NCBI GenBank assembly: GCA_021801565.1
Contig: JAJYXV010000015.1
Location: forward strand, 23,839-87,838
Source: a bacterium
Lineage (GTDB): Bacteria; Patescibacteriota; Minisyncoccia; UBA6257; GWB1-50-10
Direction: 5' to 3'
DNA: 64,000 bases
The position numbers and the translations under genes were made by a program. The notes under the pieces were generated by a model. It searched no databases and was not told the DNA's origin. It saw only the letters and a list, made by a program, of their open reading frames with translations. Below are positions 26,240-32,039 of this stretch, one piece after another. Numbering within the stretch: the first letter of the stretch is position 1; the number at the start of each line of letters is the position of its first letter.

Positions 26240-26815
26240 TTAAAAAAGACTTTCTTGAGGTGCTTCGTGATCCTCCTCTTTATATACAATCTCCGCTTTC
26301 CCCATCTGAGGAATGTTCCGTTGAGGAATCCAGAGATATCCTTGTTTTCGTATGAGATCAAAAATTTCTTTCGTGAGCCTCACATCCTGCTTGCAGTATT
26401 CTTTCAATTTTTCCATTTCACCGTTTCGGTACCATTCAATTGCGTCGAGTCCGTGTCCGCTTTTTTTCATTCCTAAATTCGCTTCTCCCAGCAAATCAAG
26501 ACTGATGCGTCGCCCCCAACTGTTTTCGATCTGCTCCAAAATATCGTAGTGGGGTACCGCGTGGAGATTAAATTTAAAATACTTGTTTAAGACCGGCACA
26601 TCAAAACGCTTGCTCGCGAATCCAATAATAAGACCCGCGTTCTGCATCATTTCCGCAAGCACGTTAAATTCATGTTCTTCAAAACAATAATATTCGTTTT
26701 TGAGATATGAATAGGCACCCACCACCGACACTTCCAGTTTTTCAATATTTTCTTCACCTCCCACATCCGCAAACGTGTTCTTTGTCTCAATATCAAAAAC
26801 AATTTTGTCTTTCAT
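26240..26815 (-). CDS. DEDD-family 3'-5' exonuclease (RNase H-like fold)
   Basis: VFDIETKNT ... YCKQDV motifs. The start is at MKDKIVFDIE; the track start 26920 is upstream. Confidence 0.6.
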   Translation of the reverse strand: MKDKIVFDIETKNTFADVGGEENIEKLEVSVVGAYSYLKNEYYCFEEHEFNVLAEMMQNAGLIIGFASKRFDVPVLNKYFKFNLHAVPHYDILEQIENSWGRRISLDLLGEANLGMKKSGHGLDAIEWYRNGEMEKLKEYCKQDVRLTKEIFDLIRKQGYLWIPQRNIPQMGKAEIVYKEEDHEAPQESLF

Positions 26816-26882
26816 TGCTGTATTAATTATCGTTCTATTCTTACAAGAATTTACCACGAAGTCAAAAACACCCAACTCTATT

Positions 26883-27236
26883 TTATTTTTTAAAAATTGC
26901 CTTAATGTTTGAATAAGCAATTTTTATTCCAATACCAAGAAAGACAAGGCCAAAGAAAAACGGGAGGAGTGCGGGGATATTAGTCATATTAAAATCCAAG
27001 AGTGCAACATTAAAAACAAAAAATACCAAAAAACCACCGGCAACTATAACAATAAAGGAAAAACATACACTAACTATCTTTATCCATAGTGATTGAGACG
27101 AGGGAACATCTCCCATATTTTGGTACATTTGTCTTACCGCTTCATTCACCCACATTGGGCCGCCTATATTCGAGGGTGTATCTACTTCTTTGGAATTAAT
27201 TTGCTCTAATTTTTTGTTTTTTTCTTTCTGATTCAT
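26883..27236 (-). CDS. hypothetical membrane protein
   Basis: 117-aa ORF with 2-3 TM helices. Confidence 0.45.
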   Translation of the reverse strand: MNQKEKNKKLEQINSKEVDTPSNIGGPMWVNEAVRQMYQNMGDVPSSQSLWIKIVSVCFSFIVIVAGGFLVFFVFNVALLDFNMTNIPALLPFFFGLVFLGIGIKIAYSNIKAIFKK

Positions 27237-27277
27237 GCTTCATGGCTTTTCACTCAAAAGTGAAAATATATAAAAAT

Positions 27278-27766
27278 CTACCTCACGTGGCGATCTGCAA
27301 CCTTTGAGGCCGCATAACTTTCTGGCTTTGTTTTCACTTCAAAGTTGTTTGCGCGAATCATTCCCACCACTTCTTGTATAAGTGTTTTTGTCTCTCCGTT
27401 TTCACCTATATCTGCGTGTATCTCAAAATCCCAATGGGGAAGAAGATCGGAATTCTTTTTTAGTTCTTCGAGCACTTCTTTTGCGGTATCAATTGAGAAC
27501 AACACCTCTTGAATAATCCTATCTCGAAGTGTGTGGAATTTTCCCTTTTCAAACCCTCTCCAAAAATAACGCCCACCATTCCCCACGCGATAGACGACCA
27601 CCACAGTCACAAAATCTGCGTTTTTACTTGGAAGATGGAGTGAATCAGTACCAATAATAATTTTATACGAACTTGCCGTATCGTTTTTTAAAAATTGAAC
27701 AACTTCACCCACCACCTCATGAAGCGGTAACTGAGCACCAAACGAATTTTTGAATAACACCTGCAT
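27278..27766 (-). CDS. YkuK/DUF458 family RNase H-like protein
   Basis: IIGTDS motif and a C-terminal KPESYAASKVADRHVR resembling the YkuK family. Confidence 0.5.
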   Translation of the reverse strand: MQVLFKNSFGAQLPLHEVVGEVVQFLKNDTASSYKIIIGTDSLHLPSKNADFVTVVVVYRVGNGGRYFWRGFEKGKFHTLRDRIIQEVLFSIDTAKEVLEELKKNSDLLPHWDFEIHADIGENGETKTLIQEVVGMIRANNFEVKTKPESYAASKVADRHVR

Positions 27767-27810
27767 TCCTCCACCTTATTCCGAAGAATCTGGTTCGTCA
27801 ATGTTATTTA

Positions 27811-28428
27811 TTACTTCGATAAAATCTTCAACAACGCATCGGTGATGGGTTTTAATTCCAGAAGCTCTTCTTCTTTGGTGTGTTGTATTGATGGTTTATT
27901 TGTTGTTATAGAAACATAAAGTGCCCGCATCGGAAATTGAATGTGTGACTCTCCAAACACTTGATTGGTTAAAATAACTTCCCGTTTTGATTCTTCTTTG
28001 CGCATTATGCCATCGGGATTGAGGAGCGTAAAAACTTCAATCCATGCGGCACTTACCCTTCCCCCGTGTTTTGTTGCAATGCCCTTCCAAAAATCTAAAA
28101 GCGTTTTTGAAATTTCTTCCTTTGTTAAATTTTCTTTTTCCATTTCTCCCAACGCTATTCTTTTTGGCGCATCAATCAAGCCCCCTCCCTCAACCCAAAA
28201 ACCAGTATCGTTTGCAAGAATGGGAATATTCACTTTTCCAAAATATGCCCGCGCTTTAATTTCCGAATTTTCAGCCAATGTTTTTCCATTCTCTTCGACT
28301 TCAATATCTTCGAGTCCAAAGTCTTTCGGAGTATAAATCTTAATATCGAGCCCCGTCTCTCCCAAGAGGTTCTTAAATCTCTGAATTTTTGCCTCGTTGT
28401 GTGTAGCGAGAAATATTTCTTTTTTCAT
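27811..28428 (-). CDS. non-canonical purine NTP pyrophosphatase (Ham1/RdgB family)
   Basis: LATHNEAK, ENSEIKA and NDTGFWVEGGG motifs arranged as in the ITPase fold. Confidence 0.6.
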   Translation of the reverse strand: MKKEIFLATHNEAKIQRFKNLLGETGLDIKIYTPKDFGLEDIEVEENGKTLAENSEIKARAYFGKVNIPILANDTGFWVEGGGLIDAPKRIALGEMEKENLTKEEISKTLLDFWKGIATKHGGRVSAAWIEVFTLLNPDGIMRKEESKREVILTNQVFGESHIQFPMRALYVSITTNKPSIQHTKEEELLELKPITDALLKILSK

Positions 28429-28433
28429 AAAGA

Positions 28434-28979
28434 TTAATCAAGTATATATTCCCATCCAGGTTTCCATTCTTTTGTCTTTCGCCAATCGGTCGCAAATGCT
28501 TCTTCCCACGTTAGTTTTTTAAGAAGAACATCCAGTGCAAGTTGTGGGGCCTTATGAGCAACAATTGCTATGGACTTTCCATTATAATTTTTCTTTATAT
28601 CTTCCAAAAAACTTTTTACGCGTTCTTTTACCATTTCATAACTTTCTCCATTCGGCATTGGTGTAATAACTGATTGTTCTTGTAGTGGCTCAACTATTTC
28701 TGATGGTTTGTTATTATAATCTCCGTAATTACACTCCCTAAGGCGTGCGTCGGGAATAATTTTATATTTATCTCCCCACGTTAATTGGGCGGATTGGATA
28801 GCGCGCTTTAAATCTGATGTAAAAACAACATCAAAGTTTTTGTCTTCCGTGAGTGGTCCTAATTCTTTTGATTGTTGTATTCCAAGTTCCGAAAGTTCAA
28901 CATCTGACCAACCTGAAGAAAACCCCCCTTCATTATCGGTCGTAGTTCCGTGAACAAAATAAGTTATTTTTACGGCCAT
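28434..28979 (-). CDS. histidine phosphatase superfamily protein
   Basis: YFVHGTTTDNE N-terminal motif, GES, and the H in IAIVAHK. Confidence 0.55.
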   Translation of the reverse strand: MAVKITYFVHGTTTDNEGGFSSGWSDVELSELGIQQSKELGPLTEDKNFDVVFTSDLKRAIQSAQLTWGDKYKIIPDARLRECNYGDYNNKPSEIVEPLQEQSVITPMPNGESYEMVKERVKSFLEDIKKNYNGKSIAIVAHKAPQLALDVLLKKLTWEEAFATDWRKTKEWKPGWEYILD

Positions 28980-28987
28980 AAAAATTT

Positions 28988-29029
28988 TGGTGCCCTCGAG
29001 AGGATTTGAACCCCAGACCTTCTCGGTTT
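28988..29029 (-). other. tRNA 3'-half-like fragment (T-loop TTCAAAT, ends GGGCACCA)
   Basis: The reverse complement reads AAACCGAGAAGGTCTGGGGTTCAAATCCTCTCGAGGGCACCA. It shares ACCGAGAAGGTC with tRNA-Val and lacks a 5' half. Confidence 0.4.
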
Positions 29030-29177
29030 ATCCCGTACAAATTTTTTGTTTCGCTATATTTATAATATGAATCTAAATATTAATTTGTGGGCACACAAGG
29101 GATTGAACCTTGGACCTTCTCGGTGTAAACGAGACGCTCTACCACTGAGCTATGTGCCCAAAAAATTTGTACGGGAT
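29030..29177. repeat. perfect 18-bp inverted repeat (ATCCCGTACAAATTTTTT / AAAAAATTTGTACGGGAT) bracketing tRNA-Val plus a 40-nt AT-rich spacer
   Basis: Arms at 29030-29047 and 29160-29177. Confidence 0.8.
29088..29159 (-). tRNA. tRNA-Val (anticodon TAC)
   Basis: GGGCACATAGCTCAGTGGTAGAGCGTCTCGTTTACACCGAGAAGGTCCAAGGTTCAATCCCTTGTGTGCCCA forms a canonical cloverleaf. The acceptor pairs GGGCACA with TGTGCCC. Confidence 0.9.
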
Positions 29178-29319
29178 GTAAACGGATTAGTCCTCTCCCA
29201 CTGAGCCCCGCCTGCCGGCGGGCAGGTAAGCGCGCAAAAACTATCATAATCAATTTAACCGAAGTTTATTGAGTATGCAAATATATGATATAATGAACCT
29301 GTAAAAATGTATTAAGTAA

Positions 29320-30000
29320 GTGCAAATCAGAAGTATTATGACCCGTCTAAAAGATAGAGAAAAAGCAATTAAATTACGAAAACAAGGAAAAAGTTACAGC
29401 CAGATAAAAACAATTATTGGCGTGAATAAGGGGACATTAAGTTATTGGCTAAAAGATTTTCCACTTGAAGAAAAACGACTTCGAGAATTGCGAGACTGGA
29501 ATCAAGTGCGTATTGAACACTATCGAAAAACAAGAACTCTAAAAAGAGAAAATATATAAAAAGAAATATATAAAAAACAAAAGAGCGCTATATTTCCACT
29601 CTCTAAAAGAGATCTTTTTATTGCCGGTCTTTTCTTATACTGGGGCGAGGGCTCAAAAACAAGATTTTCAGAACTCGCTGTTGCCAACACGGATCCTTCA
29701 GTGCCAAAATTTTTTATTTATTGGGTCACCGTTTTTTTGGGTATAGAAAAGTCAAAAATAAAAATACACCTTCATCTCTATAGTGATATGAATATAGAAA
29801 ATGAAACGACATTCTGGTCTGAAACATTGAAAATCCAAAAAAAACAATTTATGAAGCCTTATATAAAAGATTCTTTGTTTAAAAAGATTAATCGCGGATC
29901 ATTCGGTCATGGTACTTGCACGATAAGAGTTGGAAATGCTAAAGTTGCTAAAGAAACCTTAATGGGATTAAGGGTGATTCAAGATCATTTCGGCCCGTAG
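29320..30000 (+). pseudogene. HTH + LAGLIDADG-like putative homing-endonuclease/transposase-related gene interrupted by one in-frame TAA (29557)
   Basis: ORFs 29320..29559 and 29701..30000 are in the same frame, and the intervening codons encode KEIYKKQKSAIFPLSKRDLFIAGLFLYWGEGSK... The N-terminal HTH is KAIKLRKQGKSYSQIKTIIGVNKGTLSYWL. The ORF stop overlaps tRNA positions 8-10. Confidence 0.5.
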
Positions 30001-30062
30001 CTCAGTGGTAGAGCAACGCCCTTATAAGACGTGGGTCGCAGGTCCGATCCCTGCCGGGCCGA
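29991..30062 (+). tRNA. tRNA-Ile-like (anticodon TAT), atypical
   Basis: CGGCCCG TA GCTC AGTGGTA GAGC A ACGCC CTTATAA GACGT GGGTC GCAGG TCCGATC CCTGC CGGGCCG A. There is one C-A mismatch in the anticodon stem and an unusual T-loop (TCCGATC). Confidence 0.5.
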
Positions 30063-30063
30063 C

Positions 30064-30094
30064 AAAAAAAATCAGCACAATGTGCTGATTTTTT
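30064..30094. terminator. bidirectional terminator
   Basis: aaaaaaaatcagcacaatgtgctgatttttt. Confidence 0.8.
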
Positions 30095-30107
30095 AGTTTT
30101 ATAGATA

Positions 30108-31523
30108 TCATTTCATTACTATCTGTTTTATTCCCGATGCTTTAATAATTTCGTTAAATTCTTCCTGTTCAATCGTTTCGTTTTCCATAAGTTTCCGTGC
30201 GATAATATCAAGTGTGTCTTTATTTGTAGTGATAATTTTCTTTGCTGTTTCAAGTGACTTTTTCATAATCACATTCATTTCGGAATCAATCATCTCTCCC
30301 GTTTTTTCCGAATAATCTTTTTCCGAAGAAATCTCGCGTCCCAAAAACATAAGTTCATGATTTTTTCCGAGTGTCCGTGGACCAATCACATCGCTCATTC
30401 CATATCGCGTAATTGCTTTATGTGCAAGATCGGTTGCATATTGAATATCGCTCGATGACCCAGTGCTTACATCCTTAAATATAATTGACTCTGCGGCATA
30501 TCCACCAAATGATACCGCGAGATCGGCAAGAAATTGCGCCTTTGTTTTCAATCGTCGTTCTTCGATCGGAAGTTTTAATGTATATCCTCCCGCCATCCCA
30601 CGGCTAATAATCGTCACTTTGTGTACCGGATCACTATCTTTCAGTGTTGCCGCAACAAGTGCGTGTCCCGCTTCGTGATACGCAGTGATTTCTCTTTCTT
30701 TTTGAATCGTCACGCGCGAACGTCGTGCGGGACCAAGTAATACTTTTTCAATTGAATTTAATATGTCGTCCTGCGTCACCTTCTTTCTTCCTGCGCGCGC
30801 AGTTACAATTGCCGCTTCATTTAAAAGGTTTGCAAGATCTGCGCCAGAAAAACCCGGCGTACGAGTTGCCACTACCTTCAAATTCACTGATTCATCAAAT
30901 GGTTTTCCCTTTGCATGAATCTTCAAAATATCCTCACGATCGTGAAGATCGGGCATATCAAGGAGAACGCGCCGATCAAAGCGTCCCGGACGAAGGAGTG
31001 CCTGGTCCAAAATATCGGGACGATTGGTTGCTGCCATCACAATTACATTGGTATCTCGTTCAAATCCATCCATTTCTACAAGTATCTGGTTCAGCGTCTG
31101 TTCGCGCTCGTCGTGTCCGCCCCCAAGTCCCGCTCCGCGTTCACGTCCCACCGCGTCTATTTCGTCGATAAAAATGATTGAAGGAGCTGCCTTTTTTGCG
31201 GTTTGAAATAAATCGCGGACACGTGATGCGCCAACCCCCACAAACATTTCAACAAATTCCGATGCCGAAAGATGAAAGAAGGGGACATTGCTTTCTCCTG
31301 CAACTGCACGAGCGAGAAGTGTTTTTCCGGTTCCCGGAGGACCCATTAAGAGGACTCCGCGAGGAATTTTTGCACCAATATCCAAAAACTTTTTCGGATT
31401 TTTCAAAAAATCCACCACCTCCTCCAACTCTTCTTTTGATTCTTTCAAACCCGCGACATCTTTAAATGTAATTTTGTCTTTATCTTGAGAAAAAAGACAA
31501 ATATTTATTTTTCCAAATGACAT
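30108..31523 (-). CDS. ftsH: ATP-dependent zinc metalloprotease FtsH, AAA+ and protease domains
   Basis: AMSFGK...[14 protein letters not shown] Walker A, DEIDAVG Walker B and the HEAGHA zinc motif. Confidence 0.85.
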
Positions 31524-31550
31524 TGCTTGAATTGCTCAACCCTTCGCCTG

Positions 31551-31973
31551 TCAAAAAATAAACCAAAATAAAAAAATCATAAAAAATATTGGGAGAAGCG
31601 TAGGAATTAAAATACCCATCCAATATTTAAATCCGCTCGGATCCTCGACGGTAATATTTACCTTTCTTAGTTTCTCCTTATCAACACCATAATTTGAAAG
31701 TGTTTCTACAATACCGCTCTCGCTTTCTTTTTTTGAGAGCGCGAGAGAATCATCGGTGAGCGTAATCTTTAAATCGTTTCCGCTAATTACGATGTTTTTT
31801 ACTCCATCGGTGTTTACCTTATCTGCAAGTTCGCTCATATTCATAGTCTTCGGTGGTGTTCCTTCCATTTCAAAAAGAAATGAAAAAATAACCGTGACAA
31901 ATAAGAGAAGTGTAATCGCAAAAATAAGATTTTTACTTAAATTTTTCATATGTTTTCCACTATCATAACGCAT
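31551..31973 (-). CDS. ftsH: FtsH N-terminal membrane/periplasmic domain (same frame as 30108..31523, separated by two TGA codons)
   Basis: TM1, a periplasmic domain and TM2 (WMGILIPTLLPIFFMIFLFWFIF). The frame continues [13 protein letters not shown]. Confidence 0.6.
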   Translation of the reverse strand: MRYDSGKHMKNLSKNLIFAITLLLFVTVIFSFLFEMEGTPPKTMNMSELADKVNTDGVKNIVISGNDLKITLTDDSLALSKKESESGIVETLSNYGVDKEKLRKVNITVEDPSGFKYWMGILIPTLLPIFFMIFLFWFIF

Positions 31974-32039
31974 TGGCGTTTTTCTGTAAAATGGAAATAA
32001 AAAAAGCCATACGTGGTATGGCCTTCAAGTTTAATATAA

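Follow-up and report, generated by a model that had tools for sequence, protein, structure and literature searches.

Within a 64,000-nucleotide stretch of a Patescibacteriota contig (JAJYXV010000015.1 of assembly GCA_021801565.1, positions 23,839 to 87,838; hereafter the window), an interrupted gene at 29338 to 30000 of the forward strand reads directly into a tRNA-Ile(UAU) gene. Here, we identify it as a disabled member of a large family of Patescibacteria proteins that join an N-terminal helix-turn-helix (HTH) domain to a single LAGLIDADG-like domain, and whose genes are lodged against the 5' ends of particular tRNA genes. We propose, with a probability of about 55%, that these genes are free-standing homing-endonuclease cassettes that target tRNA 5' flanks and that the window holds an inactivated copy; we lean toward viewing the family as a free-standing LAGLIDADG-like endonuclease that has gained an HTH domain and occupies a new niche at the tRNA 5' edge. 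We found no description of the family in the literature.

A single reading frame spans 29320 to 30000 and is interrupted only by the TAA at 29557-29559, as a preliminary description of this DNA had noted. In the alignment to homologues, the gene begins at ATG 29338 (MTRLKD...) rather than GTG 29320, and its frame runs from there to the TAG that ends at 30000. The same description had the second part of the gene starting only at a GTG, and GTG 29701 is the first in-frame ATG, GTG or TTG past the TAA; since this codon lies downstream of the conserved motif helix, an intact C-terminal domain cannot be made alone. The open reading frame (ORF) has no stop codon of its own, and its TAG (29998-30000) is supplied, as had been noticed, by positions 8-10 of the tRNA, the universal U8-A9-G10, in agreement with the ARAGORN and Rfam coordinates. 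Because the ORF runs into the tRNA and ends there, gene and tRNA make up one transcription unit, ordered promoter, ORF, tRNA and terminator, that closes at the hairpin after the tRNA; this hairpin is palindromic and could therefore also serve the convergent ftsH. The features of the unit are:

29286..29299, forward strand: cassette promoter, read from the sequence, with an extended -10 element (TGATATAAT, 29286-29294) and a family-conserved GAACC motif
29338..29556, forward strand: N-terminal part of the gene, codons 1-73, with the HTH domain and the first half of the linker helix
29557..29559, forward strand: in-frame TAA, codon 74, at a nearly invariant Leu in the family alignment; the same in locus L081 of a second assembly
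29560..29997, forward strand: C-terminal part, 146 codons, LAGLIDADG-like domain with motif AGLFLYWGEGSK; no usable start before GTG 29701
29991..30063, forward strand: tRNA-Ile(UAU), anticodon TAT (ARAGORN; Rfam 29991-30062, 62.7 bits)
30066..30094, forward strand: terminator-like hairpin closing the promoter-ORF-tRNA unit

The tRNA-Ile(UAU) of the window is intact and uninterrupted. Its T-loop, GGTCCGAT, is atypical, with C in place of the near-universal T55 (L077 is listed alongside it); most family-linked tRNA-Ile(UAU) genes have GGTTCGA, and this tRNA occurs widely in Patescibacteria.

More than 1300 database proteins match the concatenated translation of the two parts from end to end (best E 6e-98, 70% identity), which puts the frame far beyond chance. 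The full-length matches are about 220-224 amino acids long, and all come from genomes or metagenomes of Patescibacteria, the candidate phyla radiation (CPR). An exhaustive profile search returned 5,613 representatives of 50%-identity clusters at E<=1e-3, some of the weakest of which may cover the HTH only; with the threshold at E<=1e-10, 3,313 are left. These proteins are annotated at source as 'hypothetical' or 'helix-turn-helix domain-containing', and no model in Pfam or NCBIfam covers their C-terminal two thirds. The architecture consists of the N-terminal HTH, a long linker helix of 30 residues and a single LAGLIDADG-like domain. Pfam bears out the earlier proposal of a transposase- or resolvase-like HTH: the N-terminus is of the resolvase/Tc3/TrpR type, with HTH_23 found in 120 of 120 members and HTH_7 in 65. 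Some representatives from the profile search are 500-576 amino acids long with two or three matched stretches (for example P0176, P0184, P0185, P0191 and P0200) and may consist of HTH-LAGLIDADG-like units fused in tandem, paralleling the single-chain two-domain LAGLIDADG enzymes, while several others begin exactly at profile position 66 and represent ORFs of the C-terminal domain only.

The family is tied to its tRNA with great regularity. We examined 80 loci, one per species, from Parcubacteria/Paceibacteria, Microgenomates, Berkelbacteria and other groups, and tRNA-Ile(TAT) comes next on the same strand in all 77 that extend past the gene. With the window counted (n = 78), 38 ORFs overlap the tRNA, by exactly 10 nucleotides in 37 cases (36 besides the window), and ORF and tRNA are separated by at most 30 nucleotides in 75. 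The recurrence of the 10-nucleotide overlap in 37 of 78 loci shows that running into the tRNA belongs to the usual layout of the family and is not special to the window. The commonest gene order is S1, FtsH, the family gene, tRNA-Ile(UAU), tRNA-Val(GAC), RluA-like, rplS, tRNA-Leu, tRNA-Val(UAC), tRNA-Phe and tRNA-Gly; in the clade of the window, ftsH is inverted and stands on the opposite side, with the gene-tRNA pair kept together. An RluA-type pseudouridine synthase followed by rplS, both named by sequence reading only, stands directly after tRNA-Ile(UAU)/tRNA-Val in 27 loci (L005, for example). The tRNA-Ile(UAU) is an unusual decoder of AUA known from bacteria that lack tilS (PMC3575796), and by eye no ORF upstream of ftsH resembles TilS. 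We also considered an AUA-rich leader that would sense tRNA-Ile(UAU) and rejected it: ATA makes up 39% of the Ile codons against 22-33% in neighbouring genes, an excess that is modest and not position-specific.

The segment between FtsH and the gene is conserved, 66-180 nucleotides long, and follows the pattern TTGTTC-N17-TATAAT-GAAC...~36 nt...GGTTCAATT-ATG. Upstream of the gene, the promoter motif TAWAAT(N0-1)GAAC is present in 51 of 81 loci, 35 of which have a paired GTTC no more than 25 nucleotides from the ATG at a fixed spacing of 42-45 nucleotides; the window has the first arm only, and the second arm of the inverted repeat is absent. The repeat, TATAAT-GAACC...(42-45 nt)...GGTTCAATT-ATG, is present in both the Ile subfamily and a subfamily associated with tRNA-Gly, and in the latter one arm falls between -35 and -10, which points to an operator acting at the DNA level. 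As a speculation from sequence, the GAACC...GGTTC repeat over promoter and start codon is a candidate auto-operator, and its GGTTCAAT-like arm would appear to resemble the consensus motif of the tRNA TpsiC loop.

In the window, this gene has been inactivated by a change of Leu74 to TAA in the interdomain linker, which leaves at most a 73-amino-acid HTH fragment, removes the nuclease-like domain and does not affect the tRNA. The preliminary description had been prepared to withdraw its interpretation if the TAA were an assembly error. The TAA recurs in contig k141_347434 of ENA assembly ERZ27237554 (locus L081), which encodes the exact 73-amino-acid N-terminal product and is 100% identical to the window over 26338-30356, TAA included; the window's own assembly is absent from the collection that holds ERZ27237554. 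Its presence in a separate second assembly marks the TAA as a real nonsense mutation rather than a one-off assembly error. The corresponding column of the family alignment holds a nearly invariant Leu (...R-L-x-x-x-Y...) with no change in length, and the simplest origin of the stop would be a change of TTA to TAA. A tandem duplication of 14-15 nucleotides (repeat 29550-29580) was rejected as the source because the length is unchanged relative to homologues. An alternative code or widespread in-frame stops were likewise rejected, as each of the other ORF pairs that share a frame in the window consists of ordinary neighbouring genes that start with ATG; the other genes of the window end normally in TAA and show no signs of recoding, with extra stops only in ftsH. 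Besides the window copy, one of the 80 loci (L068) has an internal stop, likewise in the linker. The window copy is an ordinary pseudogene of its family, and the result for the window alone is modest; the truncation of the protein fits the decay stage of a homing cycle.

The endonuclease character of the family is suggested by the predicted fold of the C-terminal domain and by its motif. The domain of the window protein was modelled with a predicted local distance difference test (pLDDT) score of 93.4, and comparison with LAGLIDADG structures gave the following scores:

TliVMA intein endonuclease: 8.3
I-DmoI: 7.5 (root-mean-square deviation 2.6 A over 81 residues)
WhiA: 7.4 and 7.0
E-DreI: 7.2
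I-Tsp061I: 7.1
PI-PfuI: 6.7
I-CeuI: 6.3
I-Vdi141I: 6.1
I-CvuI, I-MsoI and I-CreI: 5.4-5.7

The motif helix, AGLFLYWGEG, ends in the model at the Glu, giving the acidic residue followed by Gly. This Glu is invariant in 120 of 120 family members and in all 91 sequences compared across the subfamilies, and G97, L100, Y101, W102, G105, K107, N117, D119, W160 and G192 are also invariant or nearly so. Weak Pfam Hom_end matches occur in 13 of 120 homologues (best E 0.004). The earlier proposal that the second half of the gene is LAGLIDADG-like therefore holds in part: fold and motif agree with it, the fold being visible in the structure alone, while neither Pfam nor profile-profile comparison gives homology. 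The same description had named a lack of any homing-endonuclease or transposase homology as fatal to its interpretation, and similarity to endonucleases was found at the fold level. Relative to the single-motif LAGLIDADG enzymes, the family has bulky residues (F, L, Y and W) in the motif helix, adds the N-terminal HTH and the 30-residue linker helix, and is free-standing at the 5' edge of tRNA genes rather than housed in an intron or intein; it has no detectable sequence or profile homology to I-CreI, I-CeuI, I-MsoI, I-DmoI or I-Tsp061I.

Several observations suggest that the cassettes have moved. In two metagenomic loci, L083 and L099, the site is empty: the FtsH stop lies 1-5 nucleotides from tRNA-Ile(UAU), with no cassette between them, and L082 is occupied and has the same tRNA gene order as L083. 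Both of the things that the preliminary description had suggested looking for in relatives, intact copies and empty sites, thus exist. Paralogues present within the first loci, used as queries, led to 80 further loci, in which related subfamilies lie directly 5' of tRNA-Gln(UUG) (46 loci) and tRNA-Gly(GCC) (11 loci); further subfamilies lie directly 5' of tRNA-Glu(CUC), tRNA-Phe(GAA), tRNA-Pro and tRNA-Arg, and the single relative on an IMG/VR contig lies 6 nucleotides before tRNA-Val(UAC). Occupancy is sporadic: in most genomes the Phe and Gly tRNAs, for example, are adjacent, with a spacer of 5-14 nucleotides and no ORF between them. Pairwise identities correlate at 0.69-0.94 among host genes and at 0.31-0.62 between the family gene and host genes, and some pairs of loci share 81-86% identity in FtsH and 50-54% in the family protein, with the reverse also occurring. 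The idea of a mobile remnant that targets tRNA genes has accordingly widened: the tRNA link and probable mobility stand and extend much further than one locus, whereas the picture of an odd local remnant gives way to that of a conserved family.

The niche of the cassettes is shared by canonical LAGLIDADG_3 genes of the same genomes, which likewise adjoin a tRNA gene at its 5' end or overlap it, are sporadic and are absent from most related loci:

L026 5080-5757, L040 5691-6389, L051 5367-6083 and L068 5156-5806: LAGLIDADG_3 gene before tRNA-Leu(GAG)
L001 1452-2117, reverse strand: LAGLIDADG_3 gene before tRNA-Asp

These genes are free-standing and encode proteins of 216-238 amino acids with two motifs and no HTH (Pfam E down to 5e-15); hhalign detects no homology between them and the HTH family.

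We propose that the cassette in the window is self-contained, consisting of its own promoter and an ORF of about 220 codons, and that its insertion point is precisely the 5' end of tRNA-Ile(UAU). The HTH and LAGLIDADG-like domains would together recognize the 'empty' allele, a tRNA gene without the cassette, and the endonuclease would cut this allele in or close to the tRNA 5' region, the invariant Glu of YWGEG acting as a metal-binding residue. Repair templated by an occupied allele would carry the cassette into the cut site, perhaps along with the adjoining tRNA, and the sister subfamilies would act likewise at other tRNA genes. In the 37 cases of overlap, RNase P would remove the stop codon of the ORF when it processes the co-transcript. 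A partial precedent is SegB of phage T4, a free-standing homing endonuclease of the GIY-YIG type that resides in a tRNA cluster, whose recognition site includes a TpsiC-loop motif and which promotes inheritance of itself and of neighbouring tRNA genes (PMC2330249). The two have in common a free-standing endonuclease gene lodged between tRNA genes, and share only this tRNA-cluster niche: SegB is phage-borne and has neither a fixed tRNA partner nor read-through into a tRNA, and the family differs in each of these respects. The window protein has no GIY-YIG match in Pfam or PHROGs; its PHROGs matches are confined to the HTH, and PADLOC indicates no link to a defence system. A recent survey of tRNA introns in Patescibacteria describes intron-borne endonucleases only (PMC13011429).

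Two groups of observations weigh against this proposal. The first concerns the domain itself: the window protein has no Pfam LAGLIDADG match at E<=1, hhalign gives a probability of 0.2% both against the local LAGLIDADG_3 genes and against I-CreI, and the family profile finds nothing among PDB sequences. The order of secondary-structure elements is a-b-a-b-a-b-b-a as opposed to the canonical a-b-b-a-b-b-a, with an additional helix between the last strands and a single clear strand after the motif helix. Taken together, the routes to LAGLIDADG through Pfam, NCBIfam, phmmer and a family profile run on PDB sequences, and hhalign are negative or weakly suggestive, and we consider the modelled domain LAGLIDADG-like in predicted fold and in motif but a divergent variant, for which sequence-based family membership fails. 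The second concerns how the family is maintained. Neither a cleavage site nor a target duplication nor any activity is known, and the family is conserved about as well as FtsH (mean identity 54% versus 57%), with the ORF intact in 79 of 80 main loci and in 77 of 77 scored paralogues and with widely conserved ftsH synteny; such conservation fits a host function under selection better than a selfish gene in decay. Conservation, intactness and the usual ftsH synteny argue for continuing selection, which could come either from ongoing homing or from domestication of the kind seen in WhiA.

Domestication is the principal competing explanation, and one that we regard as possible, with appreciably lower odds than homing: the protein would be a WhiA-like regulator of LAGLIDADG descent that binds the GAACC/GGTTC operator of its own promoter and controls the co-transcribed tRNA, and the window would hold a recent loss-of-function allele. 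Very high conservation and the near-constant intactness of the ORFs speak for it, as do the promoter-embedded repeat at fixed spacing, the placement of its arm between -35 and -10 in the Gly subfamily, and the fact that the cassette promoter drives the tRNA. Against it, the empty sites and sporadic occupancy show that these tRNAs work without the protein, and the family co-diverges poorly with host genes. The transcription factor WhiA (DUF199), itself derived from LAGLIDADG proteins, combines two degenerate domains with a C-terminal HTH and is inherited vertically as a housekeeping regulator; the family has one domain, an N-terminal HTH and sporadic occupancy, and Pfam LAGLIDADG_WhiA gives no match. 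WhiA has also lost the Glu at the catalytic position, which is invariant here. Regulation and homing are moreover not mutually exclusive, as I-TevI does both.

Alternatively, each subfamily might modify, process or chaperone its neighbouring tRNA, for example by keeping tRNA-Ile(UAU) off AUG, an idea prompted by the RNA-binding LAGLIDADG maturases that we consider improbable. It would account for the strict pairing of one tRNA species with each subfamily, for the many invariant polar residues and for the association with an unusual AUA decoder of tilS-lacking bacteria (PMC3575796). Yet related genomes have tRNA-Ile(UAU), Gly, Phe and Leu genes without the protein, the window genome itself keeps the tRNA and has lost the protein, the HTH is of the type that binds double-stranded DNA, and no similarity to any tRNA-modifying enzyme appears in Pfam, NCBIfam, the profile search of PDB sequences or structure comparison. 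The remaining possibility, close to what the preliminary description had in mind, is a remnant of an insertion sequence (IS), a transposon or an intron-encoded endonuclease, which is largely refuted and very improbable: the HTH weakly matches NCBIfam IS630 (E 6e-4) and IS3 (E 9e-3) and a PHROG 'transposase' HTH, and a disrupted tRNA-Val lies nearby, but the transposase matches involve the N-terminal HTH only (19 bits against a cut-off of 100), the protein of about 220 amino acids has no DDE or other catalytic domain, no terminal or inverted repeats flank the ORF, and the complete architecture is conserved in thousands of proteins. As for an intron, the search for a group I core that had been recommended found none in Rfam at E<=1 over 28700-30300; the tRNA-Ile is uninterrupted, and the free-standing ORF has a promoter of its own.

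The neighbouring tRNA-Val site, on the reverse strand upstream of the cassette, has a history of its own. Its features are:

28988..29029, reverse strand: relic of an older, degenerate tRNA-Val, 3' half with terminal CCA (direct repeat, at 80%, of the corresponding half of the intact tRNA; colinear with the intact tRNA-Val of L004)
29087..29159, reverse strand: intact tRNA-Val(UAC), on the insert bounded by inverted repeats (ARAGORN; Rfam 74.6 bits)
29178..29235, reverse strand: 5' part of the same relic tRNA-Val, with a D-arm repeat (comparison with L004)

The 66 nucleotides upstream of the tRNA-Val on the minus strand are identical to those of L004, where an intact tRNA-Val(UAC) begins with GCGCGCTTAGCTCAG at the same point. 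In the window's relic, a 20-nucleotide GC hairpin has been inserted after position 9 (29207-29226), the acceptor stem is degenerate (4 of 7 pairs), and the anticodon loop is split after TTTACA by an insert of about 150 nucleotides (29030-29177) that holds a complete, different tRNA-Val(UAC). A perfect 19-nucleotide inverted repeat (29030-29048 and 29159-29177), with no other copy in the window, brackets this insert. L002, L003 and L058 have other relics of tRNA 3' ends beside tRNA-Val. We conclude that the tRNA-Val site is a hotspot of tRNA-gene replacement. The preliminary description had joined this insertion and the interrupted ORF into one mobile remnant; insertion and inverted repeat are present as described, and no direct link between insert and ORF was found, the insertion being a separate event at a neighbouring tRNA gene.

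The ftsH gene beyond the terminator also shows unusual features. This essential gene (30108-31973, reverse strand) contains two in-frame TGA codons five codons apart, at 31551-31553 and 31536-31538; L081 has CGG (Arg) and GGG (Gly) at these positions, and the remainder of the gene is open and 94% identical at the protein level. A pseudogene, sequencing error and local recoding are candidate explanations. When the window is compared with k141_347434 over 26338-32008, complete identity gives way from 30357, inside ftsH, to an abrupt divergence of about 16%, mostly at third codon positions, and the break at 30356/30357 marks either the end of a recombination or co-conversion tract in ftsH or a strain-chimeric assembly. 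In L008, L019, L021, L027 and L041, the ftsH ORF is 928-965 amino acids long instead of the usual ~615, about 330 more; these long FtsH ORFs cluster by BLAST with small LAGLIDADG proteins, which suggests that these ftsH genes contain an intein with a LAGLIDADG endonuclease.

More broadly, and only tentatively, we suggest that Patescibacteria may host a large undescribed class of HTH-LAGLIDADG-like cassettes, each specialized to the 5' edge of one tRNA gene, that supply the promoter of that tRNA and would spread or replace tRNA genes between lineages by homing with co-conversion. If so, selfish endonucleases would shape the decoding repertoire of minimal genomes, including tRNA-Ile(UAU), the lysidine-independent decoder of AUA, and the replaced tRNA-Val and the 4-kb identical tract between ftsH backgrounds that diverge by 16% would be footprints of such events. 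Recognizing a tRNA-flank element would also explain a recurrent oddity of annotation, namely ORFs that 'overlap' tRNAs. As a homing element, the family would be a cellular counterpart to SegB-type homing at phage tRNA genes, and if it is specific to tRNA flanks, it would offer compact new DNA-targeting scaffolds with predictable natural targets in tRNA genes. It would also bear on the way in which the ultra-reduced genomes of the CPR retain and swap their tRNA genes, tRNA-Ile(UAU) among them.
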